Source: a virus
Taxonomy: Duplodnaviria; Heunggongvirae; Uroviricota; Caudoviricetes
Strand: one strand, 5' to 3'
DNA: 21,431 nucleotides
IMG/VR virus record: IMGVR_UViG_2563366923_000001
Location: 1-21,431 of that record
Shown here: piece by piece, positions 1,596 through 20,954 of the stretch
How the letters are laid out: each line of letters begins with the position of its first letter
How positions within the stretch are numbered: the first letter of the stretch is position 1
Position numbers and translations under genes: made by a program
The notes under the pieces: model-generated
Seen by the model: the letters and a program-made list of their open reading frames with translations, nothing else
Told to the model about the DNA's origin: nothing
Databases searched by the model: none

Positions 1596-1630
1596 ACAAA
1601 AAAGCCCCTCGACTGAGGGGCTTTCTGTTT
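1596..1630. terminator. Bidirectional rho-independent terminator (GCCCCTC-GACT-GAGGGGC between an A6 run and a T-rich run); terminates ogr on the minus strand
   Basis: 7-bp GC stem at 1604-1610/1615-1621, preceded by AAAAAA and followed by TTTCTGTTT, 14 nt downstream of the ogr stop. Confidence 0.55.
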
Positions 1631-1634
1631 GTAA

Positions 1635-1853
1635 TTACATCCACATAATTTGCTGCCCTGACGGCAACGGGTGTGGCCTTACGGCGTGGACTTCTCCCGG
1701 CTTCACGATGTATCGCTGTACCGACTCATAAGTGATGAACGTGGCGCTGCAATTCACGTTCTGACACTGGTGATAACGCTCTTTTGTCGTGTCAGTGATA
1801 TAGCGGCTTGTACGCGCATGTGCGGCATGCTGGCATAAAGGACAATGAAACAT
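1635..1853 (-). CDS. ogr: Ogr, zinc-finger late-gene transcription activator (72 aa)
   Basis: Internal Met of the 93-aa track ORF gives MFHCPLCQHAAHARTSRY..., with CxxC...CxxxxC zinc-finger cysteines and length 72 aa matching P2 Ogr; ATG at 1853-1851. Confidence 0.9.
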   Translation of the reverse strand: MFHCPLCQHAAHARTSRYITDTTKERYHQCQNVNCSATFITYESVQRYIVKPGEVHAVRPHPLPSGQQIMWM

Positions 1854-1934
1854 CGCGAGCACCTCTTCCGGTTTTATTGATGGTGCCATTTTAGTTAATT
1901 TATCCTTATAAAACAAACAGATAAAATAAAAACA

Positions 1935-3098: not shown

Positions 3099-3577
3099 TA
3101 TCCCGCCCCCGTCATCCCCGTGAATCTGGTCGCCATACTGCCAGCTTTACCGATGAGCGATTCCGCCTGTTTACCGATATCGCCATAAAGCGCGGCCAGT
3201 GATTCATCAACGCGGGTGAGCGACAGCGTAAAATCAATTTTCCGGGGTGTGCCGTCTGCAAAGAAAATACTCCCTGTTTCACTTACCCTGCTGATGACAT
3301 ACATGCCGTAAATCATGCCGGTGCCATCCAGCAACGGCCACGCCCGGCCTTCATCTGCCATCAGCCTGAGCGTGGTCATCGTCAGCTTTCCGCCGGTCAG
3401 TTCGGGATAAAGCACACCGGCAAGCGTCATGTTTTCCTCACCCACACCGAGAAACTGGTAGGCCTCCCGTTTACCGATACGGGAATTTGACGGCCAGCGA
3501 TAATCTGATTCACGCTGCATGGTCTGGTGTGGCAGCGTCTGGCGCATAAAAACAAACATACCTAACGCGAGCATCAT
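3098..3577 (-). CDS. U: P2 gpU-like tail protein (159 aa)
   Basis: 159-aa ORF matching P2 gpU in length and position upstream of D. Confidence 0.82.
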   Translation of the reverse strand: MMLALGMFVFMRQTLPHQTMQRESDYRWPSNSRIGKREAYQFLGVGEENMTLAGVLYPELTGGKLTMTTLRLMADEGRAWPLLDGTGMIYGMYVISRVSETGSIFFADGTPRKIDFTLSLTRVDESLAALYGDIGKQAESLIGKAGSMATRFTGMTGAG

Positions 3578-3806
3578 TTTTCGTCACCTCCTTAACCGAA
3601 TCCGGGAAGCCACCGAGCGACCACTCCATTGACAGCGCATCGTCATCAAGGCCGAGGTCTACCGGTGCGCTGCCGTTCATCCCCGCACCGCGATAGTTTT
3701 CGAGCTTACGGGTCAGTTTTGGTAGCGTGACGGACTTCGCGACGCCCTGATAGCTGTAGCCGTTCAGAAAGACGTTCATTAACTTGAGTTTGCGCGGCAT
3801 TGCCAT
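3510..3806 (-). pseudogene. FII: Truncated tail tube gene FII (N-terminal about 72 codons fused to out-of-frame sequence upstream of U)
   Basis: ORF begins MAMPRKLKLMNVFLNGYSYQG... (tail tube N-terminus) but is only 98 aa against 172 aa in P2; its last about 27 codons read through the U start region in another frame; genes E, E' and T that lie between FII and U in P2 are absent. Confidence 0.7.
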
Positions 3807-3818
3807 CGGTCAGGCTCC

Positions 3819-5009
3819 TTAATTGCTGTTAACCGAGGTGACCAGATTTGCCAGGTATTTATCGGTAATACGCTGGCGCAGGGTCAGGTTTTCGAGAGGA
3901 GGCACCGGGGTATAGTCGTAGTCGATATACAGTTTTCCGGCCTTGAGGGTTTCCGCATCGTTGGATTCTTCGCTGAACCAGCAGGTCGCATCCACGATAT
4001 AGCCGTTTGTTTTCAGTTCACGGAATTTGGCATTGATGCCGTCAACGATGTCGCGAATCAGCGTTGCGGTGATGGGCTTGTCCACCGCCCACATGTGCGC
4101 CTCAGCCATCGTGTCGGCCAGCACCTGCGCGGTGCGGGTGTAGTTTTCAAAGAGGAACAGCGGGTCATCAGAGCAGGTACGGTTACCCCAGAAGCGGAAA
4201 CCGTCGCGGCGAATCAGCGTTGTGACGCCAGACTCGTTCAACAGGTCAGCATCGGTGCCGGACTCCTGCAAATCCCAGAATACAGATGCGCTGATGCCGG
4301 TAACACCGTTTACCCCGACGTTGGACAGCGTTTTATGCCAGCCCTGCTCCTGGTCGATTTTAGCGCGCAGACCCAGCGCACGGGCGGTGGCATACGCGGT
4401 GGCGGTGGTACTGGTGACCGTATCCCATGCGAGGAAATCCGGCCAGATGACCATCAGCTCACGCTGGCTGAAATTCTGGCGGTAGGCTTTCACCTCGGAA
4501 ATGGTCTTACAGCCCCATGCGCTGATATATCCGAAAGCGCGCAGCTTCTGACAGACGGATGCTAGTGCAACAGCCACCTCTTTGGTATCCAGTCCCGGCA
4601 CACCGAGAATACGCGGTTTAACACCGGTTACCGACTCCGCCGCCAGCAGGGCTTTCAGTCCGGTGTACTGACCGTTTTCGTCGGTGGTGCCGATGATATT
4701 GGAAACGGTCTGCGCAAGTTTCGTTTCCTCGTCGTCGCCGGTGCCGTCTTCCACACGCACGACAACGGTGACCGGTTTTGACTGGTCGGCGATGGCCTGC
4801 AACGATGCCGCCAGCGTGCCTTTTTTACCGGCCTTTGCAATTGCGCTCTGCACATTGGTAATCAACACCGGTTTATTGAGGGGGAAGGTTTCCGCATCCG
4901 CATCGCTGGCCGTGCAGACCATGCCGACAATGGCAGTGGATACGGTGGAAATGACGCGGGTGCCGTCGTTAATCTCCAGCACCTGCACGCCATGATGATA
5001 GTCACTCAT
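3819..5009 (-). CDS. FI: P2 gpFI-like tail sheath protein (396 aa)
   Basis: Track ORF 3819..5162 has an internal start MSDYHHGVQVLEINDG... at 5009-5007, preceded by a GGAG RBS; the 396 aa from that Met matches the P2 FI length. Confidence 0.85.
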   Translation of the reverse strand: MSDYHHGVQVLEINDGTRVISTVSTAIVGMVCTASDADAETFPLNKPVLITNVQSAIAKAGKKGTLAASLQAIADQSKPVTVVVRVEDGTGDDEETKLAQTVSNIIGTTDENGQYTGLKALLAAESVTGVKPRILGVPGLDTKEVAVALASVCQKLRAFGYISAWGCKTISEVKAYRQNFSQRELMVIWPDFLAWDTVTSTTATAYATARALGLRAKIDQEQGWHKTLSNVGVNGVTGISASVFWDLQESGTDADLLNESGVTTLIRRDGFRFWGNRTCSDDPLFLFENYTRTAQVLADTMAEAHMWAVDKPITATLIRDIVDGINAKFRELKTNGYIVDATCWFSEESNDAETLKAGKLYIDYDYTPVPPLENLTLRQRITDKYLANLVTSVNSN

Positions 5010-5100
5010 CCGTTTAACTCCGTGGTTAATGGGTGCAACTATTTTCTGTTGTGCAGAGCATGAGACGCTATTTGACCTGGCTGGCCAGTGGATGAAACAA

Positions 5101-5133
5101 CAGATAAAGAAAAGGCGGGCAATCAGCCCGCCA
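5101..5133 (-). terminator. Putative rho-independent terminator on the minus strand (GGCGGGC-TGATT-GCCCGCC followed by TTTTCTTTATCTG)
   Basis: 7-bp GC-rich inverted repeat at 5113-5119/5125-5131 with a T-rich tract downstream on the minus strand; sits between the Z/fun-position cargo and the FI promoter region. Confidence 0.45.
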
Positions 5134-5378
5134 GCCTTGATTTGCACTCTCTCAATTTCCAACTGACAAAATACGTAGCCAAAACGCTATCAAATCTGAC
5201 AGCCTGCTTTGAGCGAGAAACAGACATGGATGGCATACAGTGAAAGTAGCCGCACAATGAGCATCACTGCAATTCTGAATTCAAGCTCTAATACTATTGA
5301 GACCGTATCATACAGTCACTCGCAAAAATTACTTTACCTGAGTGAAAAAATTGATTCCAAGCAAAATGAAAACTTGTA

Positions 5379-5406
5379 ATTCATTATTACATGCATAATA
5401 ATGAAT
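5379..5406. promoter_or_regulatory. AT-rich 11-bp perfect inverted repeat (ATTCATTATTA-CATGCA-TAATAATGAAT) about 100 bp upstream of the OLD-like gene; candidate operator
   Basis: Read directly from the sequence; a TATATAAA -10-like element follows at 5420-5427. Confidence 0.3.
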
Positions 5407-5508
5407 AAAAACTTGAGCTATATAAACCAAAGTTGTTCCGAATAGTCCGTTGAGACATCACTCGAATTATAGGAATACAAGGTTTTATTTTTATAAGGAA
5501 TCGCTCCC

Positions 5509-7773
5509 ATGGGTTTGCAAAGCATAAGAATAAAAAACTTACTATCATTTAATGATGTAATAATAAATTCCCTAGAGGATGTAAATTGCATTGTAGGGAT
5601 GAATAATGTTGGCAAATCCAATCTTATGAAAATATTGAAATATTTTTACGACAAACTTGACGACATAAAAGTAATACCTCCTGATTTTCATTCTAGTTAT
5701 ACTCCTTCAGGGTCAATAACATTGACTTATGATGTAACAAGAATAAAGAGAATTGTAATGAACCCTAATAACAATGGTCGCTTTCACAAGCATATTTATA
5801 ACACTTTATTTAAGCCACAATCATTCATCCGAAAGCCGCAGAAATTCTGTCTTCCTTTCATATCTCCTTTGGGTTTCCAAAGAAAAAGCACTTATAGCAT
5901 TACACTCACAATTTCTAAAGATGACTCCGTAACTTGGTCAATTAGCACACCAAATGCCCGGCATCTAATTAAAACTCTATTTCCTTTTTTCCATATTGAA
6001 ACCAGACACATTGACTTATACGACTGGAATAGCATATGGAAAATGCTCAGCAGTATAAATTCCTTTAATTTCTCTGAAATAAAAAAAGAAGAACTCCTTG
6101 AGTTTTTGAATGAGAAAATATCAACTAAGCGGGGTAGTTACAAGAAGTATATAGAAAGAGTTGAAAATGTAATCCATACTAAACCTTACACCTATAAAGA
6201 TAAAGTCGTTAATTATCTAAAAATAGTTTTAGATGGCGATATTTTCATAAATAAAGGTGAAGAACTACATGTTCAGTCGGATGGCACGAACTCTCACAAA
6301 TATCTTGAAATTATACTTAGCCTATTAATTTCATTAACAAGAACAGAATTTATCAATCCAATTATATATATTGATGAACCTGAAATTGGGCTACATCCAA
6401 AACTTAGCGAGAACTTTATTGAGAACATAAGCCTGACATATAAAAAGTATGATAAAACCCATGAGGAAATTGAGCCTGGAAAATATTCAACACCATATCC
6501 AACTCTTATATTTAGCACTCATTCTCCGAGTTTACTAAAACTCACGCTAAAATCTTTCTTACATAAACAGCAGGTTTTGCATTTTTCAAAAGAACGTGAC
6601 AACTCGACCAAAATTTCAAAATTAAACTCTAAATATAATGACATTAGATTTATAAATATGCTTAGCGATAATGAGGCCCGTCTATTCTTTAGTGAATACA
6701 TTCTATTTGTAGAGGGCGCCACAGAAGTTGAATTGTTTAGAAATTATAATCTGCAAAAGCTGTTTCCAGTACTTAAAAGGTTAGATGTGTATGATTGCGA
6801 TGAAGTAATGTTGAAAAATATAAACCCCAGCTACTCAAATGCAGCCATCCCATTTCTAGTAGTAAAGGATATTGATCAGATTGCCGTTGTTGACTTCGAA
6901 CATGAACAATTTAAATTTAATTCGAAAGGGAAATCAATTATTAATAAAATCATTAAGAGAGATAAACTACACTATTTTTCGACATACCAAAAACCTTTTC
7001 TTAACGCAGCAAAATTTCTTTTAAGCCAAGATGAAAGGAAAGTAACATTCAGTGAAAATGGCCTAAAATTCAGACACTTCAGTATAGGCAGAGTTATAAG
7101 CGCAGTTAATTTTTTATCCTCTAAAGATAATGTTTATTATACTTCTACAACGATAGAAGGCTCATTGATCAATGAATTCTCTTTAGAGACATTCTCTTTA
7201 TGGATCATTGACATAGTAATGAGAAGCTTTAATGTAAATAATAAAAACCCTGTAAAAATGATTAATGCTCTGCTGCAAAAATACGATATTAAAACCCAAT
7301 CAAAACAACTTTTTCCCAAAATACTTTCAAAATGTGAAACAAATCATGACCTACCATTGCGACACATGAGATTATTGAAAATCATTAAAATTAGATATGC
7401 TAAAGAAATAATTGATGAGTTTAAAAAAACCATCCCCGACGTAAAAGACCAAGTTGCTATCTTGCGCCTTATTTTTAGTGGCAAAACAGAAACTCTTGTA
7501 AGTATAGAAATGCATTATAAAATTGATCAAAAACCGATACGGCAAGATATATTGGATTATATCAAAGCATTAAAGTCAGAAAATTTCTCTTTTATGAGTT
7601 CTTACATAGGAAAGACTTCTGGATGGGTTACAAGCTTCATTGATTTTAGCCTTAATCATTATTCAGCCCTAGATAAAGAAAATGTCGAAAAAAAATTCCG
7701 CTTGGCTTTTCCTGAAATTTCGCATATCATCGATCATGCTTCTTCTTCGATAGAAGCTGGAGGGCTCAAATGA
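5509..7773 (+). CDS. OLD-family nuclease-like protein: N-terminal ABC-type ATPase, central TOPRIM domain, about 300-aa unassigned C-terminal extension (754 aa)
   Basis: Walker A GMNNVGKSN near the N-terminus; Walker B/D-loop IIYIDEPEIGLHP; H-loop FSTHSP; TOPRIM glutamate motif LFVEGATEVELF and DxD-like VVKDIDQIA; AAGGAA RBS before the ATG; strongly AT-rich relative to the prophage backbone. Confidence 0.75.
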   Translation: MGLQSIRIKNLLSFNDVIINSLEDVNCIVGMNNVGKSNLMKILKYFYDKLDDIKVIPPDFHSSYTPSGSITLTYDVTRIKRIVMNPNNNGRFHKHIYNTLFKPQSFIRKPQKFCLPFISPLGFQRKSTYSITLTISKDDSVTWSISTPNARHLIKTLFPFFHIETRHIDLYDWNSIWKMLSSINSFNFSEIKKEELLEFLNEKISTKRGSYKKYIERVENVIHTKPYTYKDKVVNYLKIVLDGDIFINKGEELHVQSDGTNSHKYLEIILSLLISLTRTEFINPIIYIDEPEIGLHPKLSENFIENISLTYKKYDKTHEEIEPGKYSTPYPTLIFSTHSPSLLKLTLKSFLHKQQVLHFSKERDNSTKISKLNSKYNDIRFINMLSDNEARLFFSEYILFVEGATEVELFRNYNLQKLFPVLKRLDVYDCDEVMLKNINPSYSNAAIPFLVVKDIDQIAVVDFEHEQFKFNSKGKSIINKIIKRDKLHYFSTYQKPFLNAAKFLLSQDERKVTFSENGLKFRHFSIGRVISAVNFLSSKDNVYYTSTTIEGSLINEFSLETFSLWIIDIVMRSFNVNNKNPVKMINALLQKYDIKTQSKQLFPKILSKCETNHDLPLRHMRLLKIIKIRYAKEIIDEFKKTIPDVKDQVAILRLIFSGKTETLVSIEMHYKIDQKPIRQDILDYIKALKSENFSFMSSYIGKTSGWVTSFIDFSLNHYSALDKENVEKKFRLAFPEISHIIDHASSSIEAGGLK

Positions 7774-7893
7774 GCTGACGCATGCCGTCACTTGCTCCAG
7801 CAAACACTAGCTCGGATTGTCTTGCGTCCGCTAAGCCGCTTTAAGCCTCACGGGGTGTAAAGATGTTATTGGTATCGAAGAGGAAGCTTTTAC

Positions 7894-8991
7894 ATGAAAC
7901 ATAAAATTAATAAAATTAACAATGATTTTTATAAAAATTTTTATCTAAGAGAAACATTCTCCGATGATATTATTATGACTCACGGAGTCCCTGAGATTTC
8001 CAATGACGATTATAAAAGCATTTCATTAAAGAATAGATTATGTTTCACTATAAGAAAAAGCTCCCCGCATAAAAAAATACAAGAAAGACTTATAAAAAAT
8101 TTCCTAGTAAAAGTTCCTCTTAGCTCACCTGCAATTGCCTATCGTAAAAAATTAAACTATTTGAATTTTCTAGAACCTCATATCCATGGTGAGAACTTTT
8201 GTCGAATTGACTTATGTAATTTTTTTCATAACATAAACTATAACTTTGCAAGGGAGTGTTTCAAATCCTACTTTGAAGATGAATATCTGGTAAATAAAAA
8301 AATCAAAGTTATTGATGCATTTTTAAATAGTTTATCTATTGAGATTGTAGTCAACAATAAAAAGAAAAAAATATTTCCAATGGGATTCGCCACATCACCT
8401 TTCATATCCAATATAATTTTCAGAAAGTTAGATATTTTAATTAAAAGTTTGTGTGACAAAAGAAGCATCATTTACACTCGTTATGCTGATGATATGCTTT
8501 TTTCGAGCTCCGGGAAAGACAAACTTCTTGGAAGTGAACATTTTGACAACGAGATATCAACTATTGTCAATACGGCAGGACTGTCCCTCAACAAACATAA
8601 AAAAATATTTAAGAAAGGCATAATCTCACTAAACGGCTATGTAATAGAAAATAAAAATGGAGGGGGAGAGAGAGGGAGTATAAGAATATCTAATGGAAAA
8701 ATGTATTTAATACGGAAAGCACTAGATAAATTTAAAAAGGGATATTCTAAAGAGCATATTTGCAAAAAAGTATTTTCTGTTAAATCACCAACTGTCAAGT
8801 ATAATAACAATGCAGATCAGTTTGTAACGGATTTTTATAATTCACAATTCTCTAATAAGTTAGCTGGTTATCGTTCATATTTAATATCATTAGTAAAATT
8901 TAATGATAAATTCAGATGTTTTCACGAAAACGAAATCACCAAATACTCAGTGATTATTGATGAAATTTCTAATGCACTGCTAAAACCCTAG
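7894..8991 (+). CDS. Reverse transcriptase, retron/Abi-like (365 aa)
   Basis: RT motifs in order: RIDLCNFFHNI (motif 2 region), FPMGFATSPFISNIIF (motif 4, compare retron PQGxxxSPxLSN), YTRYADD (catalytic YxDD at 8482-8493), LSLNKHKK and ISLNGYVI (retron-like motif 6/7 region, but no canonical VTG); GAGGAAG RBS; AT-rich; no maturase or endonuclease domain. Confidence 0.8.
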   Translation: MKHKINKINNDFYKNFYLRETFSDDIIMTHGVPEISNDDYKSISLKNRLCFTIRKSSPHKKIQERLIKNFLVKVPLSSPAIAYRKKLNYLNFLEPHIHGENFCRIDLCNFFHNINYNFARECFKSYFEDEYLVNKKIKVIDAFLNSLSIEIVVNNKKKKIFPMGFATSPFISNIIFRKLDILIKSLCDKRSIIYTRYADDMLFSSSGKDKLLGSEHFDNEISTIVNTAGLSLNKHKKIFKKGIISLNGYVIENKNGGGERGSIRISNGKMYLIRKALDKFKKGYSKEHICKKVFSVKSPTVKYNNNADQFVTDFYNSQFSNKLAGYRSYLISLVKFNDKFRCFHENEITKYSVIIDEISNALLKP

Positions 8992-9413
8992 CCTTAGAAA
9001 GTTAATGTTTTGGCCCTAAAGCAAGGGCCTTAATAGTAAAAATAGTTACCAGCATAAGTATTCCTTCAACTAATCACACAAATTAACGTTAGCAACGTTC
9101 CCTTTTTACACCGTCTGAGCACTAAGCTGTCGGTCATTCTGGTCTACCATACTATTATACGTAACATCCAAGAGTGTTCCTGCAAACGGTCGTAGAAAAT
9201 GCGGGCTTCGCCATTTTCTGGCCGACGCCGGTCTCGTCGAGTTCTTCTGACTGTTCAAGTGCAAATGCGCCTGTAGGTATCCCTACAAAAGAAACCATCA
9301 ACTTTTAGATAGTATCTGGCACTCCAACTCCCGCTGTTGACTCGGAGCGGACTGTCAGATTAGGCTTTACTCTGTACCATAGATACGTTAGCTCACTCCA
9401 GAGATCATACAAC

Positions 9414-9941
9414 TTATTGCGGCATGTCCGGCCATTCAGGATTTGAAGGGTCCACACGACTGACCAGAACGCTGTAGCGTTCCCATGCATCCAGTCGACT
9501 GCGCTCCTCACCTGTTGCCATATTCAGCCTGACAGCGCGCTCCAGCGGCAAAATTACGGATTCAGCTTCGGAAAGCAAAGCTGCCTTATGTAATTCCGCT
9601 AGTTTCTGCTGTTCGTCTGCCGTATAAATCCGCTTAATCACGGCACCATCCTTAAACATCCATTTACCTGAGTCATCAGCACGCCGGTTGGCAGTAATAT
9701 CAGGAACCTCAACGACGCTAAAACCTTCAGGATTAAGCGTTGAAGCATCTCTGGTGATGGCGACAATAATATTATTTTCATCGTAAACAATCTTTATTGT
9801 GTCTGGCTGAAAATTACTTACTTCCTCATACCAGTTTTTTCCGTCTTCGGACCATAACCAGATAACATCAAAATTCTTTGTTAGCTGATATTGCTCTTTT
9901 GTTTTTGGATTACCTGACTTAATGTTCTTTAAATGCTGCAT
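9414..9941 (-). CDS. G: P2 gpG-like tail fibre assembly protein (175 aa)
   Basis: 175-aa ORF matching P2 G in length, immediately downstream of the tail-fibre gene remnant. Confidence 0.8.
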
Positions 9942-9944
9942 TAC

Positions 9945-11030
9945 TTACACCTGCGCAACGTTATACCATGTGCCATTGATGTATTTTTGTATCGGCCTGA
10001 AGATGGCCTCATCATCGCCATCTACTTCACCAATGATTCTTAATCCGGTAATCGTGTGTCCGGCTTTTTCATAACGACCACCTCGCGCCATCAATTGAAC
10101 AACTCGCGTACCCAGGCGAACATCTTTCACATAGCGGGAATCAAAATTCCCCCAGTTGCTGGGTTGCATCTGACCGTTAACAGCAAATATTACCGAGTTA
10201 TCTGTATTTCGCTGGCTATAGAAATGCCATCCGGACTCATCGCCTAACTCTGCAACCACTGGACGGTTGGAAGCACCCCATAAATTAAAGGTAATATTCT
10301 TCGTGGATGTGTTAGAGCTGGATAGCGAGAACTTTTTACTATCCCCTGCCTGAATATTTTTAAAAGCAATAGCCACTCCATTCTGAAAACGGAATACACG
10401 CTGACTGTTAGCATAAACATCAAGAATACCGTCTCCATTCTGTTTAAATCCGGTATCATTATCACCAAGGACAATAGAGCTACCACCTAGTGCATTCGTC
10501 GTACCAACTCCAAGACAGCCATTAATGACGGCATTAACAAGAATATTTAGTGCATCCCATTTCAGCGTCATCAGGTCTTTTGTTGTGGTACTCTGGCGGC
10601 TTCTCCATTTGAAATATTCATTGCCGTTATCCCCCGTTTCAAACCACATGTATGAATCAGCGTCACCATCGGCATCATTTTTAAATCCAATCTTCGCCCA
10701 GTCAGTATTTCGAATCCAGGCAAGGATTGAGTCGTTTTCAAAAGTAATCCCGCCGGACAAGGTATCGCCATTCTTTTGCACCGCGTTCCTGGCCCTGTTT
10801 ACCGTTTCCTGCAAACCGAGGTATTCGATAACGGCAGCAATGGTCGCTTTAGCCAGAATATCCCGCCCGACTTTTGTCAGGGTTGCCAAACTGGCAACAT
10901 CATTCCCCGTAAAATACGGAAAGCTGTCTGCCGCAGTAGCAAGCCCCGCCAGCGCCGTCAGAGTGGCATCTTTCGGTTGCTTACCCGCAAGCGCATTAGT
11001 CATGGAGGTAGCAAAATTCGGGTCTCGGCC
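9945..11030 (-). pseudogene. H: Tail fibre gene H remnant (C-terminal half, about 360 codons) lacking its N-terminal half
   Basis: Reading frame continues upstream of Met 11003 as ...DPNFATSMTNALAGKQPK..., which I recognise as an internal H region; upstream of about 11027 the frame decodes nonsense that overlaps J in another frame. P2 H is 669 aa. Confidence 0.72.
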
Positions 11031-11860
11031 AGCGGTGCAGTCAGTTCGACACGCTGCACGCCTTCCACATGCAAAGCGGCATAAATGGCAGACAGACGGA
11101 TGTCGCGCCCCAGCCGGTGCTGTGCCGTGATGTACGCTTCCAGTTTTTTCACGGCAGCAGCGCGTATGGGTTCGCTTTCGGGACCAGGGTAAAGGTAAAG
11201 CGTGGCGTTTATCTGGTATTCAACGATGGCGGCAGACTGCACGGTCACGCGGTCGGCCACCGGCCTGACGTCCTCGCCATTAAGGGCGTTACGCACCACC
11301 GCCAGCAGGTCTTCGGATGCGACACCGTTATTTTCACGTGACAGCACAGAGATGGTGACGCAGGCCGGAGACGGACTGGTTACAGAAATATCCGCGACAC
11401 GCCCGTCGGCACTGCGACCATGATACTGATAGGCCCCCACCGACCCGGCGACGCTTAAACCTTCAAACGCCTGCTGAATACGCAGACGATAATCCGTGTC
11501 AGATTCCATCACTGCCGGTGTCGGCGGGATGGTCGAATCATCTTCCAGGGTGATAATCAGGCGCGTGGTGTTGTAATTGGCACCAATCACATCAAGGTCA
11601 TTACCGGCAGCACAGGCCAGCATCACCGCCCGTGCGGCCTCATTCACACGCTGACGCCAGATAAGCTCACGATAAGCATTTTCCTCCAGCAGTTTGACGA
11701 GAGGCTCAGATTCCAGCGTCAGGGTACGGGCGACCGCCTCCTGCTGGTCTTCCGGGTAAAGGGAAATCAGTGTCGCCTTGCGTTCGGCAAGAATGGTTTC
11801 AAAGTCCAGCTCCTCAACCACATCCGGTGCGGGTAGCTGGTTCAGGTCGATAATCGGCAT
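11000..11860 (-). pseudogene. J: Baseplate gene J with altered/truncated C-terminus (286 aa against 302 in P2); gene I absent
   Basis: ORF starts MPIIDLNQLPAPDVVEELDF... (J N-terminus); the last about 8 codons (ETRILLPP) read into H-derived sequence; the stop overlaps the H-frame Met (ATGA). Confidence 0.62.
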
Positions 11861-11864
11861 GGTT

Positions 11865-12212
11865 TCAACTCACAGGAATGGTTAACGAAAGTGGCTGGCC
11901 GGTGTCGTTGTGCTGGCCGGTTAACGTGACCGTCATTCGCCCGTCAAAACTGCGCTCAGTGGTGACGGATGACAGGGTGACGCGGGGTTCCCATTTCAGC
12001 ACCGCCATGTAACAGGCGACCTTAATCTGCAACTCAAGCGCCGGGGTCTGCGGCTGGTCAATCATTGACGCCAGCAACGAGCCGTAATCACGACGCATCA
12101 CCCGCGAGCCGACCGGTGTGCGCAGGATATCGCCGATACTCTGGCTGATATGCTCAAGGTCAGTGACAGTCAGGCCATCACTGCGATTCATTCCGAGATA
12201 ACGCGCAGTCAT
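11865..12212 (-). CDS. W: P2 gpW-like baseplate protein (115 aa)
   Basis: 115-aa ORF, same length and position as P2 W (between V and J). Confidence 0.82.
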   Translation of the reverse strand: MTARYLGMNRSDGLTVTDLEHISQSIGDILRTPVGSRVMRRDYGSLLASMIDQPQTPALELQIKVACYMAVLKWEPRVTLSSVTTERSFDGRMTVTLTGQHNDTGQPLSLTIPVS

Positions 12213-12565
12213 AGAGGTCCCCCTGTTGTGCCGCCGCTGTCGCCGGGGTGTTTATGGGTATGAAGTACCTTACCGTTTGATGAGAGTTCACCGCCGGTGT
12301 GTTCAATGTTGCCGCGCATCGTCCCGCCCTTCTGCACTTCCAGCGTGCCGGTAATCAGCCTGTTGGTGCAGACCACCTCCGGTGTGTCCAGGGTGACGCG
12401 GGTTGATGCTTTCACCATGACCACCGGCACCGTGGCGGTAACAGAATCAGAAGCCGTCACGCTGGCCGTTTTAATTCCGCTTACCGTAAGTGCACTGGTT
12501 TCGGGTTCATACTCAATCATCGCTGCCGAGACCCGCATCATGTGGCGCTGTGCGGGACTCGTCAT
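12209..12565 (-). pseudogene. In-frame M'-V' fusion remnant: first about 16 codons of terminase small subunit gene M joined to the C-terminal about 100 codons of baseplate spike gene V
   Basis: ORF begins MTSPAQRHMMRVSAAM (recalled as the gpM N-terminus) then continues IEYEPETSALTVSGIKTASV... (V C-terminal region); 118 aa against 211 aa for V; sits directly after the N stop, where M starts in P2. Confidence 0.62.
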
Positions 12566-12568
12566 CGG

Positions 12569-13060
12569 TTACGCTCCCGGCTCTGCGGTCGCTTTAGCCG
12601 GTGTGGAGAAATCACCGACCTTAATTTTTTCCACCAGACAACCGGCGGCGTAGTCCTCCACCACGTAATCAATGTTCATTGACTCGTAGTTCTCCACGCG
12701 ATCGAGTTTCGGGTTTTCCTCAATCACGCGGCGATGGCTGTCATCCATGTAGTAGATGGACAGGTTTTCCAGCTTCGTGATGAGCATCGCATCAGCCGGG
12801 AAGTACGGGACGCGTACCGCTGGCAGGTTGCCGATGCGTTTCTGGCTGATGATGACGTCAGCGGCCAGCATTTCGCTGTTGTCCTGCTCCTTGTTGACGA
12901 TGGGAAAATACTTGTCCGCCAGTAGCTGACGTCCCACAATCACCACAAGGTCAGGGTCTTCCTGATACCACGGCTCAATCAGGTTGTTGGTCGCATCCAT
13001 CACCAGTGCATCAAGGCTGGCATAATCACCGCCCTTATCCGTTCTGGTCGGGTGAACTGT
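12569..13060 (-). pseudogene. N: Major capsid gene N remnant (C-terminal about 157 codons only)
   Basis: Frame reads ...KGGDYASLDALMMDATNNLIEPWYQEDPDLVVIVGRQ... to the stop at 12569; an upstream in-frame stop at 13061-13063 and no N-terminal about 200 codons; P2 N is 357 aa. Confidence 0.68.
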
Positions 13061-14051
13061 TCAACCGGGGACGCGCCAGCGCCGCCGAACGCGTGGAAAT
13101 CGACGTCAGTCATAACGCCCTTGCCGGTGGGCTTCTCTGTGCGGACGGCCAGTGGCGGCAGATTGTCACCATTGAGGACGCCCTGAAAGGTGGCTGCACG
13201 CTGTTCGACATTGAGCAGCTTAAACGCGAAAACAGCGCCGACGATTTTAAAAACCTGTTCATGTGTGAATTTGTTGACGACAAGGCGTCGGTATTTCCCA
13301 GCAGGATTTCAGCCGCTTTGTGCTGGATTTTCTGGTGTTCGGCAATGCGTTTCTGGAAAAGCGTTACAGCACCACCGGTAAGGTCATCAGACTGGAAACC
13401 TCACCGGCAAAATATACCCGCCGTGGCGTGGAAGAGGATGTTTACTGGTGGGTGCCGTCCTTCAACGAGCCGACACCTTTCGCGCCCGGCTCCGTGTTTC
13501 ACCTGCTGGAGCCGGATATTAATCAGGAGCTGTACGGCCTGCCGGAATATCTCAGCGCCCTTAACTCTGCCTGGCTGAATGAGTCGGCCACTCTGTTCCG
13601 CCGCAAGTATTACGAAAACGGCGCACATGCCGGATACATCATGTACGTCACGGATGCCGTGCAGGATCGCAACGATATCGAAATGCTTCGCGAAAACATG
13701 GTGAAGTCGAAAGGCCGCAACAACTTTAAAAACCTGTTTCTCTATGCCCCGCAGGGAAAAGCCGACGGCATTAAAATTATCCCGCTCAGTGAAGTGGCGA
13801 CGAAGGACGATTTTTTTAATATCAAAAAAGCCAGTGCCGCAGACCTGCTGGACGCGCACCGCATCCCCTTTCAGTTGATGGGCGGCAAGCCGGAGAACGT
13901 CGGGTCGCTGGGCGATATTGAGAAAGTAGCAAAGGTCTTTGTCCGCAATGAGCTTATCCCGTTACAGGACAGGATCCGCGAGATAAACGGCTGGCTCGGT
14001 CAGGAGGTCATCCGATTTAAAAACTACTCACTGGACACTGACAACGGCTGA
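13040..14051 (+). pseudogene. Q: Portal gene Q remnant: no start codon, reading frame switches near 13280-13300
   Basis: C-terminal 243 codons (13320..14051, frame 3) are an intact portal-like sequence; the N-terminal part is in frame 1 (track ORF 13006..13578); frame 3 has a stop at 13275-13277; frame 1 upstream of about 13040 is antisense to N; position next to cos fits P2 Q. Confidence 0.62.
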
Positions 14052-14056
14052 ACATC

Positions 14057-14078
14057 GCCGCCTGCGGGCGGCTTTTTT
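14057..14078 (+). terminator. Rho-independent terminator after Q (GCCGCC-TGCG-GGCGGC plus TTTTTT)
   Basis: 6-bp GC stem and T6 tract beginning 6 nt after the Q stop codon. Confidence 0.7.
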
Positions 14079-14220
14079 ACACCCCGTCATCACGCCCTCA
14101 CACGTTCGCCACTGTACAAAACACCCCGCAGACACACCAACGCCCCGGCAGGCCGACTAAACGCCATCACGACGCGCTCAGACGCTGAAAAAATAAAATC
14201 AGCACCACCGCCAGCGCGCA

Positions 14221-14239
14221 GTGCTTTCCCCGCCTCGCC
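14221..14239. other. P2 cos cohesive-end sequence (reverse complement of GGCGAGGCGGGGAAAGCAC)
   Basis: GTGCTTTCCCCGCCTCGCC at 14221-14239 matches the 19-nt P2 cohesive end as I recall it, and sits where cos lies in a P2 prophage (between Q and the tin/old region). Confidence 0.72.
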
Positions 14240-14331
14240 CGCCCGCTTCATGGGGCGGTTTTAATGCAGTTACATAGATACTATGGATCCGCACCAGTCC
14301 TGACCGCACGCAGCCTGAACGGACATCCCCG

Positions 14332-14365
14332 ACGCATGCAAAAACATTCACTTGTTGCATGCAAC
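14332..14365. promoter_or_regulatory. Tandem GCATGCAA palindromic motifs (CGCATGCAAA at 14333-14342; perfect palindrome TTGCATGCAA at 14355-14364) upstream of the 313-aa cargo gene; candidate operator/promoter
   Basis: Read directly from the sequence; the two sites are 23 bp apart; a related ATGCATGCAA occurs at 16698-16707 upstream of the divergent cargo operon. Confidence 0.35.
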
Positions 14366-14477
14366 GGCTTATTTAATGACAAATCAACTTAAATTTACAA
14401 AATCCACAGGTATGGATACTTTGCGAACATGATAGGCTTACGAGAATTATCGTGCCTGTTTTTGAACGGAGAAAGTT

Positions 14478-15419
14478 ATGCAAGGTGAAGTTGACGAACA
14501 GCAACCAAATGAGATTATTTCGGAGTTTGGATACTATCCAGTAGAAGTTAACATTGAGACTGAACAATTTTCTTTGCGTACTTTACCCGGTCTTATTGAG
14601 AAAGTGGAACGTATTAACAATGATAAAAACGTTGTTAATGGTTGGATATACCCTGGGAATCGAAAGGTATATAACCTTAATGGTGACACATGCACAATGC
14701 CTTATAGTTACCGAGTATTCGGCATGCCCAAAACGCACACACTAAAATTAAAAAACACATCCTCGTTAGAAACTCTCAACTTTGTTGTGTGGTGCCTCTC
14801 TTTTTTCAAGGGTATAAGATTGACAACCACTGACGCTGGTTTTCTTGATGCAACCACTATCAAGCCCACTAAGTTAACCGACTTTATTCTCGTTGGATGC
14901 TCTGAAAAAGAAGTAATAGAGCTAGCACTTAACTATATAAAAGACAAACAAAAAGATGATCGCTCCATTAAAAGAATAGCTGCGGTGATACACTCCCTAT
15001 TCCTGTCACATAACCCACTATACCTTTCCTTTGAGAAATTCCAGTATCTTTATATGGCTCTTGATTGCTGTTTTGCTATAGCATGGGATGAAAGGGATAA
15101 AGTCATTAAAGAGAAAAAACCATCTCATCAAAATAGAGTATATTGGACGTGCGAAAATTACGGTGTAAAAATCCCGTCATGGGCAACAGATGAATGTAAT
15201 GTTTCAGTTATACGCAATGATAATTTTCATGAAGCCATTTTTAATGGGCAACCGCTTGGTTTCTCTAGTATCAATGATTGTCAATATGGTAGCGATATAT
15301 TGCTACAAATGCAGGCTCTGGTATGTCGTCTACTAGCGGCAATACTCTCTGTAAATGATCGTAAATATATCGCATCTACAATCAGCTCGATAGAGTACCA
15401 TTCATTAAAATTAACTTAA
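14478..15419 (+). CDS. Hypothetical protein (313 aa), AT-rich cargo at the tin/old position; no recognisable motifs
   Basis: Long ORF with a GGAG RBS 8 nt before the ATG; composition contrasts with the prophage backbone; first gene after cos. Confidence 0.6.
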   Translation: MQGEVDEQQPNEIISEFGYYPVEVNIETEQFSLRTLPGLIEKVERINNDKNVVNGWIYPGNRKVYNLNGDTCTMPYSYRVFGMPKTHTLKLKNTSSLETLNFVVWCLSFFKGIRLTTTDAGFLDATTIKPTKLTDFILVGCSEKEVIELALNYIKDKQKDDRSIKRIAAVIHSLFLSHNPLYLSFEKFQYLYMALDCCFAIAWDERDKVIKEKKPSHQNRVYWTCENYGVKIPSWATDECNVSVIRNDNFHEAIFNGQPLGFSSINDCQYGSDILLQMQALVCRLLAAILSVNDRKYIASTISSIEYHSLKLT

Positions 15420-15491
15420 TGCTAACGCCTCACTTCGCTCGTTGTTCAACCCCGCCAGCCTGAAAACAAGTTTCACGACTGGCGGCGTTCT

Positions 15492-15644
15492 CTATCGTCT
15501 GCGTGGTGGTGGCGCAACTCTGGACTGACCGATATAGTTAAACCGCCCGTAATTATCCCGGACTATTTCGGCACACCCGACCAGCTCGTCAGGCGTCAGA
15601 TTTTCGTTGACCATAATCTGCTGTAAACGGTGAACAATGGCCAT
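15492..15644 (-). CDS. Possible small ORF (50 aa, MAIVHRLQQIMVNENLTPDELVGCAEIVRDNYGRF...), function unknown
   Basis: ATG-to-stop ORF below the track size cut-off, with an in-frame upstream stop and a weak AGG-type RBS; backbone-like GC content; could be a remnant of a phage gene. Confidence 0.2.
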   Translation of the reverse strand: MAIVHRLQQIMVNENLTPDELVGCAEIVRDNYGRFNYIGQSRVAPPPRRR

Positions 15645-15738
15645 CAACCTGACACTTTTGGTGTTATATGTGGTATCTCACATGAGATTACTGACCAAGG
15701 TGCATCTTGGTTGACTCATTTCATATCCATCCACACCA

Positions 15739-16419
15739 CTACATCTTTATTGCATATTTATTAAAAGACGCCCAGTTCAATAAAAAAACATTATTCATAT
15801 ACCATTCAATATGATTTTTATTTTTAGATTGACTGTCAAGTAGCACACAAACATCAACCTGTTTATCAATCAATTTTGCAATATAAACCACAAACTCAAC
15901 ACTCGAATATCTCTTTGTGCCTAGCAAATATAATATTTCATCTGACAAATAATTAGACTCATGTGAAAAGACATTATCATTTAACAAAATCAACCCGCCA
16001 ATCGAGTCATTTAAATCCAAAACATCCTTTGTTGCATTTATTTGCTTATTAGCTTCCTTAACTATCTTTGTTTTAATATTTTCATAAGCAAAGTTCATTA
16101 TATCATTTCTAAATCGCTTTGAGTCTGGGTGTCTTTTTATCAACTCTTCTAAATGAATAGCACCATGCCAGTTTTTTGCAAGCCAACTATCAGTTTTAAC
16201 CAACTCATTCAGTTTATCATTGACATTCTTGACCCTGTCAGAAAAAAGACTTTTCATCTCCAAAATTATCTTTTTATTATCAATAAGATAATCTGCCATC
16301 TTGCGATTCTGACCATCCTTCATCCGGAACTTATGATGAATATCATCAATAGAAATCCCTTTTTCATGCTCAACAATGAATCTCTTAACATTGTTTTCTA
16401 ATTCGCTGTATTGTTTCAT
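15739..16419 (-). CDS. Hypothetical protein (226 aa), AT-rich cargo; no recognisable motifs
   Basis: ORF with a strong GGGGGAAAG RBS; 27 nt downstream of the DUF2158 gene on the same strand (operon-like). Confidence 0.6.
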   Translation of the reverse strand: MKQYSELENNVKRFIVEHEKGISIDDIHHKFRMKDGQNRKMADYLIDNKKIILEMKSLFSDRVKNVNDKLNELVKTDSWLAKNWHGAIHLEELIKRHPDSKRFRNDIMNFAYENIKTKIVKEANKQINATKDVLDLNDSIGGLILLNDNVFSHESNYLSDEILYLLGTKRYSSVEFVVYIAKLIDKQVDVCVLLDSQSKNKNHIEWYMNNVFLLNWASFNKYAIKM

Positions 16420-16446
16420 ACTTTCCCCCGTGAATTTTATTATGAT

Positions 16447-16638
16447 TCACTTACGTGGACGACACAGCATACCACTTTTACTCTCTGCTATTTCCAGTAA
16501 ATCAATGGAGAATGACTCCTCGTGCAAAACTCCTTCTTTATCATGCCAAATACATTTCGCATGAGTTTCAGTAGAGTCAGATACAGTCATTTTAAATCCA
16601 CCGCTTTTCAAACAAACAACATCTGCAGGCTTTAACAT
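16447..16638 (-). CDS. DUF2158 / YodC-like small protein (63 aa)
   Basis: Internal start MLKPADVVCLKSGGFKMTVSD... with GGAG 7 nt upstream; the DVVxLKSGGxxMTV signature resembles YodC-family small proteins; the track ORF 16447..16722 over-extends the N-terminus. Confidence 0.55.
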   Translation of the reverse strand: MLKPADVVCLKSGGFKMTVSDSTETHAKCIWHDKEGVLHEESFSIDLLEIAESKSGMLCRPRK

Positions 16639-16764
16639 TTTTGTCTCCAACATTTTTAAGTAATGCATTATAACATAATGATATTGACGTAGATTTAATG
16701 CATGCAACCATATAAAAAACAATCAATTACAGTCAAAACTACTTATACTGTATAGATGAGATCC

Positions 16765-17781
16765 TTACTCAAATTGATGCCAGAATCCCGACCACTCATC
16801 AGCGACCGGATACGTGAATTTTTTCCCGTCATAATTTACGGTCGCGCCACGCGCCAGCGCCTCAAGCTCCCATCGCTGCGGCCTGATACCGTTCTGAGCA
16901 AGGTCAACGCGGATACGGGTGATTTGCAATCGTTCAGACCGGGTCAGTCTGGCCGATGGCGCTATTTCATGTGGTTTTAACGGGCTTCCGTTTCTTTGCT
17001 GACGATTTGGTGTTTTCAGGCCGTGTTTTAATGCACCCCTGAGCGTCCTCACGACCTCCGGGTCATTCCATTCGATAACACCGTCATCAACCAGATTTAG
17101 CACTGCTGCGGCGTGTTCAGAAGGTGTGGGAGCCGGTAACGAAGTATCACCACCGGTGAGCTTTCCACAGTTATTGACAGGACTCCGAGGCGCGGCGATG
17201 CCGCTTTTTAACGTCAAAGGCTCAACGACCGGCACTTTCGGCACAATGCGCCAGTCCGTCGTTCTGGTGATATGAATATGACGCGCGCCGAGATGCGGCG
17301 CGTAAATGCCGACCACTCTCTCGACCTCTTCCTCGTACTCGTTAACGTCATCCGACGGGCTACGGGCAACCCTGACAGTCTGACAATCGCGCGGAACATT
17401 TGCCCCACCCTGCGCGCTGATATACAACGCAAAATCACCACTGTCTGCGGCAGCGCGTGCAGCCTCGACGCGTTCGTCAAACTCATCAGCAATGCTGACG
17501 CCGCGAGGCAATTTGCGTAGTTCACGGTAAGCCCCCATTGTCGGCAGACCAACCGTTTTAAATTGCGGAATGCGCCACGTTGACGCCCATGCGGTAACAG
17601 CAGCAGCTGTGTCTTTCAGCGGCCTGCCGGTATCATTATCGAGCTGACCATCCAGTGCATAGCCGTCGATGTTTTTTGAGATGTATTTCGCGATATATCC
17701 CGCAGCACCGCCCCGGTTAAGATGTTTTGTTGTTCCTGAATAAAATCTACGTTGTCCGGCATTATCAGCTCCTTTTATCGT
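16765..17781 (-). pseudogene. A: Replication initiator gene A remnant (C-terminal about 335 codons, with the YIAKYISK active-site region, but no N-terminal about 430 codons and no start codon)
   Basis: Frame is open from 17781 to the stop at 16765 and reads ...KHLNRGGAAGYIAKYISKNIDGYALDGQLDNDTGRPLKDTAAAVTAWASTWRIPQFKTVGLPTMGAYRELRKL...; the rolling-circle Rep Y-x-x-K-Y motif is present; no in-frame start before Met 17538; P2 A is 761 aa. Confidence 0.68.
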
Positions 17782-18067
17782 TCAGTTTCTTAAATTCATC
17801 AGCGCAATAGCTGGCGATTTCTGTCATTAATTTCGTCAGTTCATCCACGGAGGAGATTTGCTTGTGGAATACAGCGCGTTTAACAAGTAAATTGACCACC
17901 TCAGACAGGAGGTTTAATTCATTCTGATAAATCGCGATAACAGATTCAGTTATGTCGCGTTTTTCTTTATCAAGACAAAGTTGAATAAGAGACAAATCAC
18001 CATTTTCCATAACGGCGATTTTTAAGGCGTTATTCAGTAATACAACTGAATGAGAACAGGACATCAA
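17765..18067 (-). CDS. Hypothetical phage early-region protein (100 aa)
   Basis: ORF in the B-to-A interval, where P2 carries small orf80-83-type genes; start overlaps the stop of the upstream 74-aa ORF (ATGA). Confidence 0.45.
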
Positions 18068-18288
18068 AGTACCTCCCCGCGAGACAATCCGATATTGTGA
18101 AATTTTTCCGACTCCTGACTGAGCAGCTCGACTATCTCCACGCGGGATAACTCCGCCTTTGTGATGTGGCGAATCATGGCGTCAAGATGAGAAGAAAAGC
18201 GCGTCGCAGCGTCGGCCTGTGCTTCGGTTCTGGCCTGTTGCAGCAGTAATGCGTATTTACCGCACTGATTTTCAGAAACTGTATGCAT
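18064..18288 (-). CDS. Hypothetical phage early-region protein (74 aa)
   Basis: ORF translationally coupled to the downstream 100-aa ORF; lies in the early operon between B-like and A. Confidence 0.45.
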
Positions 18289-18351
18289 GACTTTCTCCAG
18301 GCAAAAAGAAGCCCCGCACGATTAAGTGCGTTAAAAACTCTGGTTAATTAC

Positions 18352-18858
18352 TTAATGCAGATATTGCTCTGGTTTTACCGACGTCAGAATTGTCGGTGCA
18401 TACTCAAACAGGCTGAATAATTCACGTAATGCACGGAATAAAGCATCACGCCAGTAACATGATTCTTCATTAATTCGCCAGTATGGCTGGTTGAATTCTT
18501 TTTCAGTCAATCCGGCATGCATAAATAAAGTACGACGCTGACTGACTGTTAAAAAACTAATATATGCATACTCACTTGCGCCAACCTGACGGCGTTTTGA
18601 GAATGCCCCACGCAATTCATCAATTGCACATACCAGTCGTTCACGTTCGACGTCGTTCATTTCTTCAAAACACATCGTTGCGTGACGCTGTTTTAACTGA
18701 GCATGGAAGCAAACCGTTAACCGTTCGCGCTCCATCATCTGATTATAATAATCACATGTATCCTGCCAGCGAGGAACGGCAAGATGCTTACCAATTATCC
18801 GGCGCATAGCTGCTGGCTGTTTTTCAACGAGATTGAGCGTCATCACTGTCATTTCCAT
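18352..18858 (-). CDS. B: P2 gpB-like replication protein (168 aa)
   Basis: Size (168 aa against 166 aa for P2 B) and position (cox - small ORF - B - small ORFs - A) match the P2 early operon; the sequence itself was not independently recognised. Confidence 0.55.
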   Translation of the reverse strand: MEMTVMTLNLVEKQPAAMRRIIGKHLAVPRWQDTCDYYNQMMERERLTVCFHAQLKQRHATMCFEEMNDVERERLVCAIDELRGAFSKRRQVGASEYAYISFLTVSQRRTLFMHAGLTEKEFNQPYWRINEESCYWRDALFRALRELFSLFEYAPTILTSVKPEQYLH

Positions 18859-19019
18859 ACCCTCCGGCTTTTCAGAAAGGTCAGAGCCTTTTTTAACGGA
18901 CTCTGTTTTTTGGTGCGGATAATGATTCCCTTACGCCCCTTACCGTGGGTGATGGTGAAGTCAATCGCCCTGGGGCTTTCGTTACGCAGTAACTGAGCAA
19001 TACAACGAGGCTCATTCAT
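18849..19019 (-). CDS. Small early-operon ORF (56 aa; orf78-position)
   Basis: Internal Met at 19019 preceded by an AGGAGAA RBS; lies between cox and the B-like gene. Confidence 0.35.
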   Translation of the reverse strand: MNEPRCIAQLLRNESPRAIDFTITHGKGRKGIIIRTKKQSPLKKALTFLKSRRVWK

Positions 19020-19029
19020 ACGGTTCTCC

Positions 19030-19305
19030 TTAACGTGGTTCACCGAGACCTAACCACATCAACCAGCCGTCACGAATCTCTTTAGGGCGGCTTTCATAAG
19101 CCAGTTTTAGTCCGTTATTCCATGCCGGAAGGTATACCCAATATTCACCTGCACGACCTGAAGCTGATTGTGGATCGGTCATATCAATTACAGGCAGCTT
19201 TCCTTTATCGATCATCCGACGAACCGCTCCTGTCGATTTTCCTATTAGTTTTGCGAACTCCTGATAAGGAATCGCATCAGTCATGAGTGTTACTTGCTTG
19301 CTCAT
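19030..19305 (-). CDS. cox: Cox, excisionase / early transcriptional regulator (91 aa)
   Basis: 91-aa ORF recognised as P2 Cox (MSKQVTLMTDAIPYQEFAKLIGKSTGAVRRMIDKGKLP...), divergent from C. Confidence 0.9.
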   Translation of the reverse strand: MSKQVTLMTDAIPYQEFAKLIGKSTGAVRRMIDKGKLPVIDMTDPQSASGRAGEYWVYLPAWNNGLKLAYESRPKEIRDGWLMWLGLGEPR

Positions 19306-19419
19306 GTCGTCCTCTAGCCCTCATGAATTGCGTTTAATGTCTTATAATGCCTTTTAGTGCCCACATCCAAGCACTAAACAATCTACATCTAAACTAAATA
19401 CTATTGAGATCTAAACACC
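19306..19419. promoter_or_regulatory. Divergent Pe/Pc switch region with two direct operator repeats ATCTAAAC (19387-19394 and 19409-19416, 22 bp centre-to-centre)
   Basis: Intergenic region between divergent cox and C; 8-bp direct repeats two helical turns apart, as described for P2 C operators; TTATAAT element at 19342-19348. Confidence 0.6.
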
Positions 19420-19719
19420 ATGTCAAACACGATAAGCGAGAAGATAGTCTTAATGCGAAAATCAGAGTATTTGAGCAGACAACAACTTGCTGATTTAACA
19501 GGGGTTCCGTATGGCACGCTGAGTTACTATGAAAGTGGTCGTTCAACACCTCCAACAGATGTCATGATGAACATCCTGCAGACCCCACAATTCACCAAAT
19601 ACACTTTATGGTTCATGACCAATCAGATCGCTCCTGAGTCCGGGCAAATTGCGCCCGCTCTCGCACACTTTGGGCAAAACGAAACAACGTCGCCCCACTC
19701 CGGTCAAAAGACTGGTTAA
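19420..19719 (+). CDS. C: Immunity repressor C (99 aa)
   Basis: 99-aa ORF, same length as P2 C, divergent from cox and upstream of int. Confidence 0.88.
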   Translation: MSNTISEKIVLMRKSEYLSRQQLADLTGVPYGTLSYYESGRSTPPTDVMMNILQTPQFTKYTLWFMTNQIAPESGQIAPALAHFGQNETTSPHSGQKTG

Positions 19720-19834
19720 CAATTCATCGTGAATATATTCATCACAAGTGCCTACTATTGGTGGCTAAATTTCAGCCACCACGAAAAAAGCGATTAGTAG
19801 TCGCAAAAAAACACACCACTCGGAGGGTTTTCTG

Positions 19835-20848
19835 ATGGCAATCAAAAAACTCGATGATGGTCGATATGAAGTGGACATCCGCCCTACTGGACGTAATGGA
19901 AAACGCATCCGTAGGAAGTTTGATAAGAAAAGCGAAGCTGTCGCTTTCGAGAAATACACGTTGTACAACCACCACAATAAAGAATGGCTATCAAAACCAA
20001 CAGACAAGCGACGTCTGTCGGAGCTGACACAGATCTGGTGGGATTTAAAGGGTAAACACGAAGAGCATGGGAAATCTAATCTTGGAAAAATTGAAATCTT
20101 CACAAAAATAACGAATGACCCATGCGCATTTCAAATTACGAAATCGCTTATCAGCCAGTACTGCGCCACCCGAAGAAGTCAGGGTATTAAACCTTCGAGT
20201 ATCAATCGTGATTTAACATGTATTAGCGGCATGTTTACAGCCCTGATTGAAGCGGAGTTATTCTTTGGTGAGCACCCTATCAGAGGGACAAAAAGGCTTA
20301 AGGAGGAAAAACCAGACACAGGCTATCTCACGCAGGAAGAAATTGCCTTACTGCTTGCTGCTCTTGACGGCGACAACAAAAAGATTGCGATTCTTTGCCT
20401 GAGTACTGGAGCACGTTGGGGAGAAGCAGCTCGTTTGAAAGCAGAAAATATCATCCATAACCGCGTCACGTTTGTTAAAACGAAAACAAACAAACCACGC
20501 ACCGTCCCGATCTCAGAGGCTGTTGCCAAAATGATCGCGGATAACAAACGAGGTTTTTTATTCCCTGATGCTGATTACCCTCGCTTCAGACGAACAATGA
20601 AAGCAATAAAACCGGATTTGCCAATGGGGCAAGCCACACATGCACTAAGGCACAGCTTTGCCACTCATTTCATGATTAATGGAGGAAGTATTATCACGCT
20701 ACAACGGATACTAGGTCACACGCGGATTGAGCAAACTATGGTTTACGCTCATTTTGCGCCAGAGTACCTTCAGGACGCCATTTCTCTTAATCCGCTAAGA
20801 GGTGGTACTGAGGCCGAGAGTGTCCACACAGTGTCCACAGTAGAGTAA
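19835..20848 (+). CDS. int: Tyrosine integrase (337 aa)
   Basis: 337-aa ORF (P2 Int length) with the C-terminal tyrosine-recombinase signature (…HALRHSFATHF…LGHTRIEQTMVYAHF…); GGAGGG RBS; adjacent to the att core. Confidence 0.9.
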   Translation: MAIKKLDDGRYEVDIRPTGRNGKRIRRKFDKKSEAVAFEKYTLYNHHNKEWLSKPTDKRRLSELTQIWWDLKGKHEEHGKSNLGKIEIFTKITNDPCAFQITKSLISQYCATRRSQGIKPSSINRDLTCISGMFTALIEAELFFGEHPIRGTKRLKEEKPDTGYLTQEEIALLLAALDGDNKKIAILCLSTGARWGEAARLKAENIIHNRVTFVKTKTNKPRTVPISEAVAKMIADNKRGFLFPDADYPRFRRTMKAIKPDLPMGQATHALRHSFATHFMINGGSIITLQRILGHTRIEQTMVYAHFAPEYLQDAISLNPLRGGTEAESVHTVSTVE

Positions 20849-20927
20849 CGTTTAAGGGCTTTCAGTGGTAATTTATGCCGCTCAAACCCGCATTGTACCG
20901 TTGAAAGCCCCTACTGGTGACACCCTA

Positions 20928-20954
20928 AATCTCCCTTACACGGGCTTATTTTTT
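20928..20954. repeat. P2 att core copy (attL, int-proximal): AATCTCCCTTACACGGGCTTATTTTTT
   Basis: Identical to the 27-bp copy at 1507-1533; 80 bp downstream of the int stop. Confidence 0.8.

Follow-up and report, generated by a model that had tools for sequence, protein, structure and literature searches.

An in-frame M'-'V fusion ORF in the P2-like prophage of Escherichia coli KTE233 is very probably a passive scar of prophage decay

Escherichia coli B carries a defective P2-related prophage, and K-12 retains the ogrK/D' remnant at the same cyaR-yegQ site, the known P2 attachment locus. With such defective P2-like prophages of E. coli the element of strain KTE233 described here shares the att site, decay by internal deletion and the retention of ogr, D and cargo. 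It differs from them in representing an intermediate stage of decay, with six deletions, in which int, C, cox, B, FI, U, D, W, G and a retron are kept intact. Unlike the shared features, a junction between the start of M and the end of V is confined to the KTE233 lineage. Decay of prophages by deletion is an established theme, as are the cargo hotspots of P2 (see PMC6379469, a review of prophage decay in general, and bioRxiv 10.1101/2021.01.21.427644).

The junction unites two P2 proteins. The spike gpV (SPIKE_BPP2; PDB 3QR7, 3QR8 and 3AQJ) combines an OB-fold (PF04717 Phage_base_V, residues 19-86), by which it docks on the tube/baseplate, with a triple beta-helix and an Apex; its residues His197 and His199 cage an iron ion, and the engineered fragment gpVdL (gpV 97-211, the 3QR7 structure) is soluble, trimeric and fully ordered alone (bioRxiv 10.1101/2023.02.25.529910). 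The small terminase subunit gpM carries the Phage_term_smal domain (PF05944) at residues 35-164.

The window, that is the whole stretch of 21,431 nucleotides analysed here, is 100% identical over 19.2 kb to the E. coli KTE233 scaffold KB732580.1. Its P2-like prophage occupies positions 1507-20954, between trhP/yegQ with the CyaR sRNA on one side and yegR on the other. BLAST against the reference P2 genome (NC_001895) resolves it into the following blocks:

1507-3598, matching P2 24382..22291: att, ogr, D, U
3593-5219, matching P2 19068..17438: FII', FI, pF
9331-11048, matching P2 15356..13639: G, 'H
11025-12523, matching P2 12127..10629: J', W, 'V
12517-13040, matching P2 5205..4682: M', 'N
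13036-13298, matching P2 2117..1855: P fragment
13294-14239, matching P2 944..1: Q fragment, cosL
14221-14268, matching P2 33593..33546: cosR
16782-17729, matching P2 30296..29349: 'A
17728-20954, matching P2 27582..24356: early genes, C, int, att

The second reference, the intact prophage of about 35.4 kb that E. coli UPEC85 carries at this site, gives the same block pattern at 96-99.8% match. Because the block structure is the same against P2 and against this intact prophage, the element is concluded to have suffered six internal deletions (D1-D6, with junctions at 3593-3598, 11025-11048, 12517-12523, 13036-13040, 13294-13298 and 17728-17729), leaving about 19.4 kb of a prophage that once measured about 35 kb; the M-V join is D3. 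The genes T, E/E', X, R, S and I have been lost; FII, J and H survive in truncated form, and P and Q as fragments. An R-type tailocin was considered and rejected, since the lysis cassette is deleted along with the six absent genes or gene pairs just named and V is truncated as well as FII, J and H. The genes int, C, cox, B, FI, U, D, ogr, W and G survive without frameshifts, so the element decays by deletion and not by point mutation. At its left edge the CyaR/RyeE sRNA (1445-1530, plus strand; Rfam RF00112, 100.7 bits) overlaps with its 3' end the attL core at 1507-1534, and this core is repeated at 20928-20954.

The features in and around the M-V join are as follows:

12209..12565, minus strand: chimeric M'-'V ORF, 118 aa plus stop, MTSPAQRHMMRVSAAM followed by IEYEPETSALTVSG
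12518..12565, minus strand: gpM-derived codons 1-16 (MTSPAQRHMMRVSAAM), 16/16 identical to P2 gpM 1-16
12209..12517, minus strand: gpV-derived codons 110-211 and stop, with the triple beta-helix (PF18715) and Apex
12566..12578, minus strand: native N-M junction retained, with Shine-Dalgarno, N' stop and 3-nt spacer
12569..13040, minus strand: N remnant (major capsid; from about codon 201 to the end)
11865..12212, minus strand: W, gp25-like baseplate wedge, intact
12517..12523, no strand: D3 breakpoint, with exact microhomology TCA at 12517-12519 (TGA on the coding strand)
M coding strand at the join: ...GCAGCGATGA followed by CCGCG
V coding strand at the join: ...GGGGCGGTGA followed by TTGAG
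Window coding strand at the join: ...GCAGCGATGATTGAG

The first-pass annotation had read the 118-aa ORF as an in-frame fusion of the gpM N-terminus to the gpV C-terminus that starts 4 nt after the N stop, as M does in P2, and had placed the event at 12500-12570, an interval that includes both the exact microhomology at the breakpoint and the start codon. This reading is borne out by the alignments. Beyond the sixteen residues of gpM, chimera residues 17-118 are identical to P2 gpV 110-211 at 100 of 102 positions, and the two substitutions (G133D and S209G) are the residues also found in the V segment of JX21CE8, the closest intact relative. The residues spanning the fusion point are VSAAM followed by IEYEPETSALTVSGIK, and the fusion is in frame because M and V are both at codon phase 0 at the join. 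Both flanks are collinear with the N-M and V-W regions of P2, as had been proposed: by BLAST, 12517-13040 (the C-terminal part of N and the start of M) is 97.7% and 11025-12523 (the C-terminal part of V, W and J) 96.6% identical to the respective P2 segments given above. In the UPEC85 prophage the flanks are collinear with 22705-23228 and 16657-18155, while JX21CE8 is 100% identical to the window on the M side and 99.8% on the V side, with no DNA difference in the 44 nt compared past the join.

The native surroundings of the ORF are kept at both ends. The chimera ATG (12563-12565) and the N' stop TAA (12569-12571) are 3 nt apart, the same spacing as in P2 (N end 5153, M start 5157), and a GGGAG Shine-Dalgarno at 12574-12578 stands 8 nt from the ATG. 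At the other end W overlaps the chimera stop by 4 nt, which is the native V/W overlap as in P2. Further upstream, D4 (junction at 13036-13040) has joined the 5' end of N' to terminase P sequence in antisense, with the loss of pP/pO and O.

Against P2, UPEC85 and JX21CE8 alike the intervening genes are absent between the collinear flanks; a short identity lies at the breakpoint, and the junction has been sighted independently. D3 measures about 5.3 kb when JX21CE8 is the reference, 5.4 kb against P2 and 4.6 kb against UPEC85. Lost with it are M codons 17-247, L, X, holin, endolysin, lysA/B/C, R, S and an orf30-like gene, together with the pV promoter and its activator site and V codons 1-109. 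The functions lost are thereby the small terminase, head completion (L), tail X, the holin/endolysin/spanin cassette, tail completion (R/S) and the OB-fold domain of the spike. The loss of M, L, the lysis genes, R and S had been listed correctly at first, but the list was incomplete, since X, lysC, the orf30-like gene and the Ogr-dependent pV are gone as well.

The breakpoint falls within an imperfect 7-mer (GCGATGA in M, GCGGTGA in V) matching at 6 of 7 positions over 12517-12523; base 12520 is M-specific and base 12516 V-specific. Three exact bases of microhomology are by themselves only weakly above chance, and the other five deletion junctions of the prophage have microhomologies of 2-6 nt. 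Junctions with such short microhomologies are typical of illegitimate deletion that does not depend on RecA. Very probably a single deletion of this kind, mediated by microhomology, linked M codon 16 to V codon 110, presumably by slippage or by illegitimate recombination between the M and V copies of the 7-mer.

The reading frame was considered as a possible hint of selection. At five of the junctions the two genes brought together lie on the same strand (FII-T, J-H, M-V, P-Q and orf82-A), and among these only M-V is in frame, where a chance of 1/3 per junction leads one to expect one to two. No enrichment of in-frame joins was found: one in five agrees with the chance expectation of 1/3, and the frame carries no signal of selection; the in-frame outcome of the M-V join is due to chance.

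Four promoters activated by Ogr drive the late genes of P2 (NC_001895 annotation). Two of the deletions remove those that concern the chimera: pP/pO (P2 3057-3127) lies within D4 and pV (P2 10239-10308) within D3, and the P2 sequences of pP/pO and pV were not found when searched for in the rest of the window. A sigma-70 scan of the minus strand at 12566-15217, about 2.6 kb upstream of the chimera, returned no sites, and no Ogr-type dyad (TGT-N12-ACA) occurs upstream of the ORF, the sole match in the window being at attL and irrelevant here. On the coding strand, the N' remnant is preceded by P and Q fragments in antisense and by cos. The ogr gene is retained, as are its promoter and pF, the latter in the same diverged form as in the intact UPEC85 prophage; both promoters serve other genes. 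Since pO, from which M is normally transcribed, and pV are deleted, transcription of the chimera would need read-through or a spurious or cryptic promoter. The first-pass annotation had suggested that the native M translation signals could yield a chimeric protein. This stands for translation, the ORF, Shine-Dalgarno and ATG being kept, but not for transcription. Judged from these signals, the chimera is most likely silent or weakly expressed.

If made, the product would be a spike fragment. PF18715 (Phage_spike) matches chimera residues 45-97 over the full profile (Pfam, E=1.1e-29), and PF18946 (Apex) reaches 20.9 bits, just above its cut-off of 20.8. The H-K-H at chimera positions 104-106 places H104 and H106 at the iron-caging H197 and H199 of gpV, and the closest PDB match is 3QR7 (E=7.6e-62); beta-helix, Apex and both histidines are thus shared with the P2 spike, and the V part of the chimera (110-211) is nearly coextensive with gpVdL. 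In contrast to gpV, the chimera has no Pfam match to the PF04717 OB-fold and carries sixteen foreign residues of gpM. With gpM it shares the start context (Shine-Dalgarno and spacing after the N stop) and these first sixteen residues, but lacks residues 17-247 and hence the whole Phage_term_smal domain; PF05944 accordingly gives no Pfam match in the chimera. Sixteen residues of gpM do not suffice for a terminase subunit, and without an OB domain and a complete tail the chimera cannot act as a spike. Once made, it would probably take the form of a free spike tip unable to dock, and the prophage could build no tail for it in any case.

Taken together, the ORF is in all likelihood a passive and ordinary scar of prophage decay, left by one microhomology-mediated deletion. 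Loss of the lysis and packaging genes would render the element harmless to its host, and the intact retron cargo may account for the persistence of the remnant. Points that weigh against a merely passive scar are the intact ORF, its good Shine-Dalgarno and its 4-nt overlap with an intact W. Because the chimera keeps nearly the whole of the self-trimerising gpV 97-211, a stable product is physically plausible if a transcript crosses the ORF. The chimera might then be expressed, by read-through from the early operon or cargo or upon superinfection, and co-trimerise with the full-length gpV of an invading P2-like phage, poisoning the assembly of its baseplate in a dominant-negative form of exclusion. 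Folding and trimerisation of gpV 97-211 alone (PDB 3QR7; bioRxiv 10.1101/2023.02.25.529910), the intact RBS and ORF and the retention of ogr speak for this alternative. We nevertheless consider it highly improbable, given that the approximately 2.6 kb upstream hold no late promoter or sigma-70-like site and are occupied by the antisense P/Q remnant, that the frame is what chance would give and that the junction is limited to one near-clonal lineage. The more specific proposal of a domesticated decoy, transcribed by read-through or when a superinfecting P2-like phage disturbs the prophage, whose defective heterotrimers with the gpV of that phage would block baseplate assembly, appears slightly more doubtful still; if it were true, a superinfection-exclusion factor would have been created by deletion.

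GenBank ELD72750.1, the identical 118-aa protein of E. coli KTE233, is named simply 'phage baseplate assembly protein V', a name that would suit an ORF whose N-terminus is a true gpV variant, or a V paralogue that is naturally short, instead of a fusion with M. Genuine V sequence at the N-terminus had been put forward as the finding that would overturn the fusion, and the alignments returned the opposite: gpV 94-109 (SVSADALHIRFPDGAV), the stretch that residues 1-16 replace, matches them at 3 of 16 positions, against 16 of 16 for gpM, and the 524 nt that run from upstream through the first 49 nt of the ORF share 97.7-100% identity with the N-M region of P2 and its relatives. A variant or short V is thereby refuted and has next to no probability.

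An assembly or chimera artefact is just as hard to believe: none of 5,426 complete E. coli genomes and no GTDB representative contains the junction, but it recurs identically in the independent assemblies GCA_000351325.1 and GCA_958338245.1 and in six Logan run assemblies, and a de Bruijn graph cannot collapse at 3 nt of microhomology. The 118-aa protein is encoded on 14 contigs, and in the eight listed the decayed context is the same at 99.8-100% identity; the carriers listed thus amount to at least eight near-identical assemblies, two from NCBI and six from Logan runs. Among the 5,426 complete genomes a 751-nt query spanning the junction found no place covering at least 80% of it, whereas the intact M side and the intact V side each occur in about 1,550. 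The exact junction 24-mer had no match in the GTDB species-representative genomes, which shows rarity only. The carriers differ by 0-1 substitutions, and the differences recorded (one substituted base at 15975, 6 nt missing at 14122-14127 and 1 nt missing from a homopolymer at 12625) all lie outside the chimera. This distribution speaks for one recent lineage: the junction is genuine, of recent origin and restricted to the lineage of KTE233. The deletion at 12625, in an A/T homopolymer of the N' remnant a short way upstream of the chimera, was seen in a contig of the metagenome-derived run ERR8212413 and reflects either further decay or a sequencing error.

The M'-'V scar is of little importance in itself, and its interest is that of a cleanly resolved case of the illegitimate deletions that dismantle a P2-like prophage. 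Such deletions strip lysis, packaging and promoter functions yet leave translatable chimeric ORFs. Annotation pipelines give these ORFs ordinary phage-protein names, as in ELD72750.1, whose start and first 16 residues come from M. In practice the junction is of use as a caution to annotators and as a lineage marker for the KTE233 clade.

The cargo of the element occupies two hotspots of P2. An intact retron defence system of Eco8 type (type I-B) lies in the fun(Z) hotspot (5509-8991, plus strand) and matches the retron of the intact UPEC85 prophage at 99.8% identity. It encodes a 754-aa ATPase-Toprim/OLD-like effector (PADLOC ATPase-Toprim_I-B, E=1e-210) and a 365-aa reverse transcriptase (PADLOC RT_I-B, E=3e-106); its msr/msd RNA had no match in Rfam. 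The old/tin hotspot (14300-16780) holds cargo unlike both that of P2 (old, tin) and that of UPEC85 (an HNH endonuclease), with ORFs of 313 aa (14478-15419, plus strand) and 226 aa (15739-16419, minus strand). Neither ORF has a Pfam or PADLOC match, and they may constitute an uncharacterised defence candidate.

The J'-'H deletion junction (10995-11050, minus strand) is out of frame. J' enters the H sequence for nine codons (ETRILLPP and stop), and its stop overlaps, as ATGA, a Met codon inside H from which a C-terminal H ORF of 352 aa (9945-11003) starts. This coupled-looking J'/H arrangement arose by chance.
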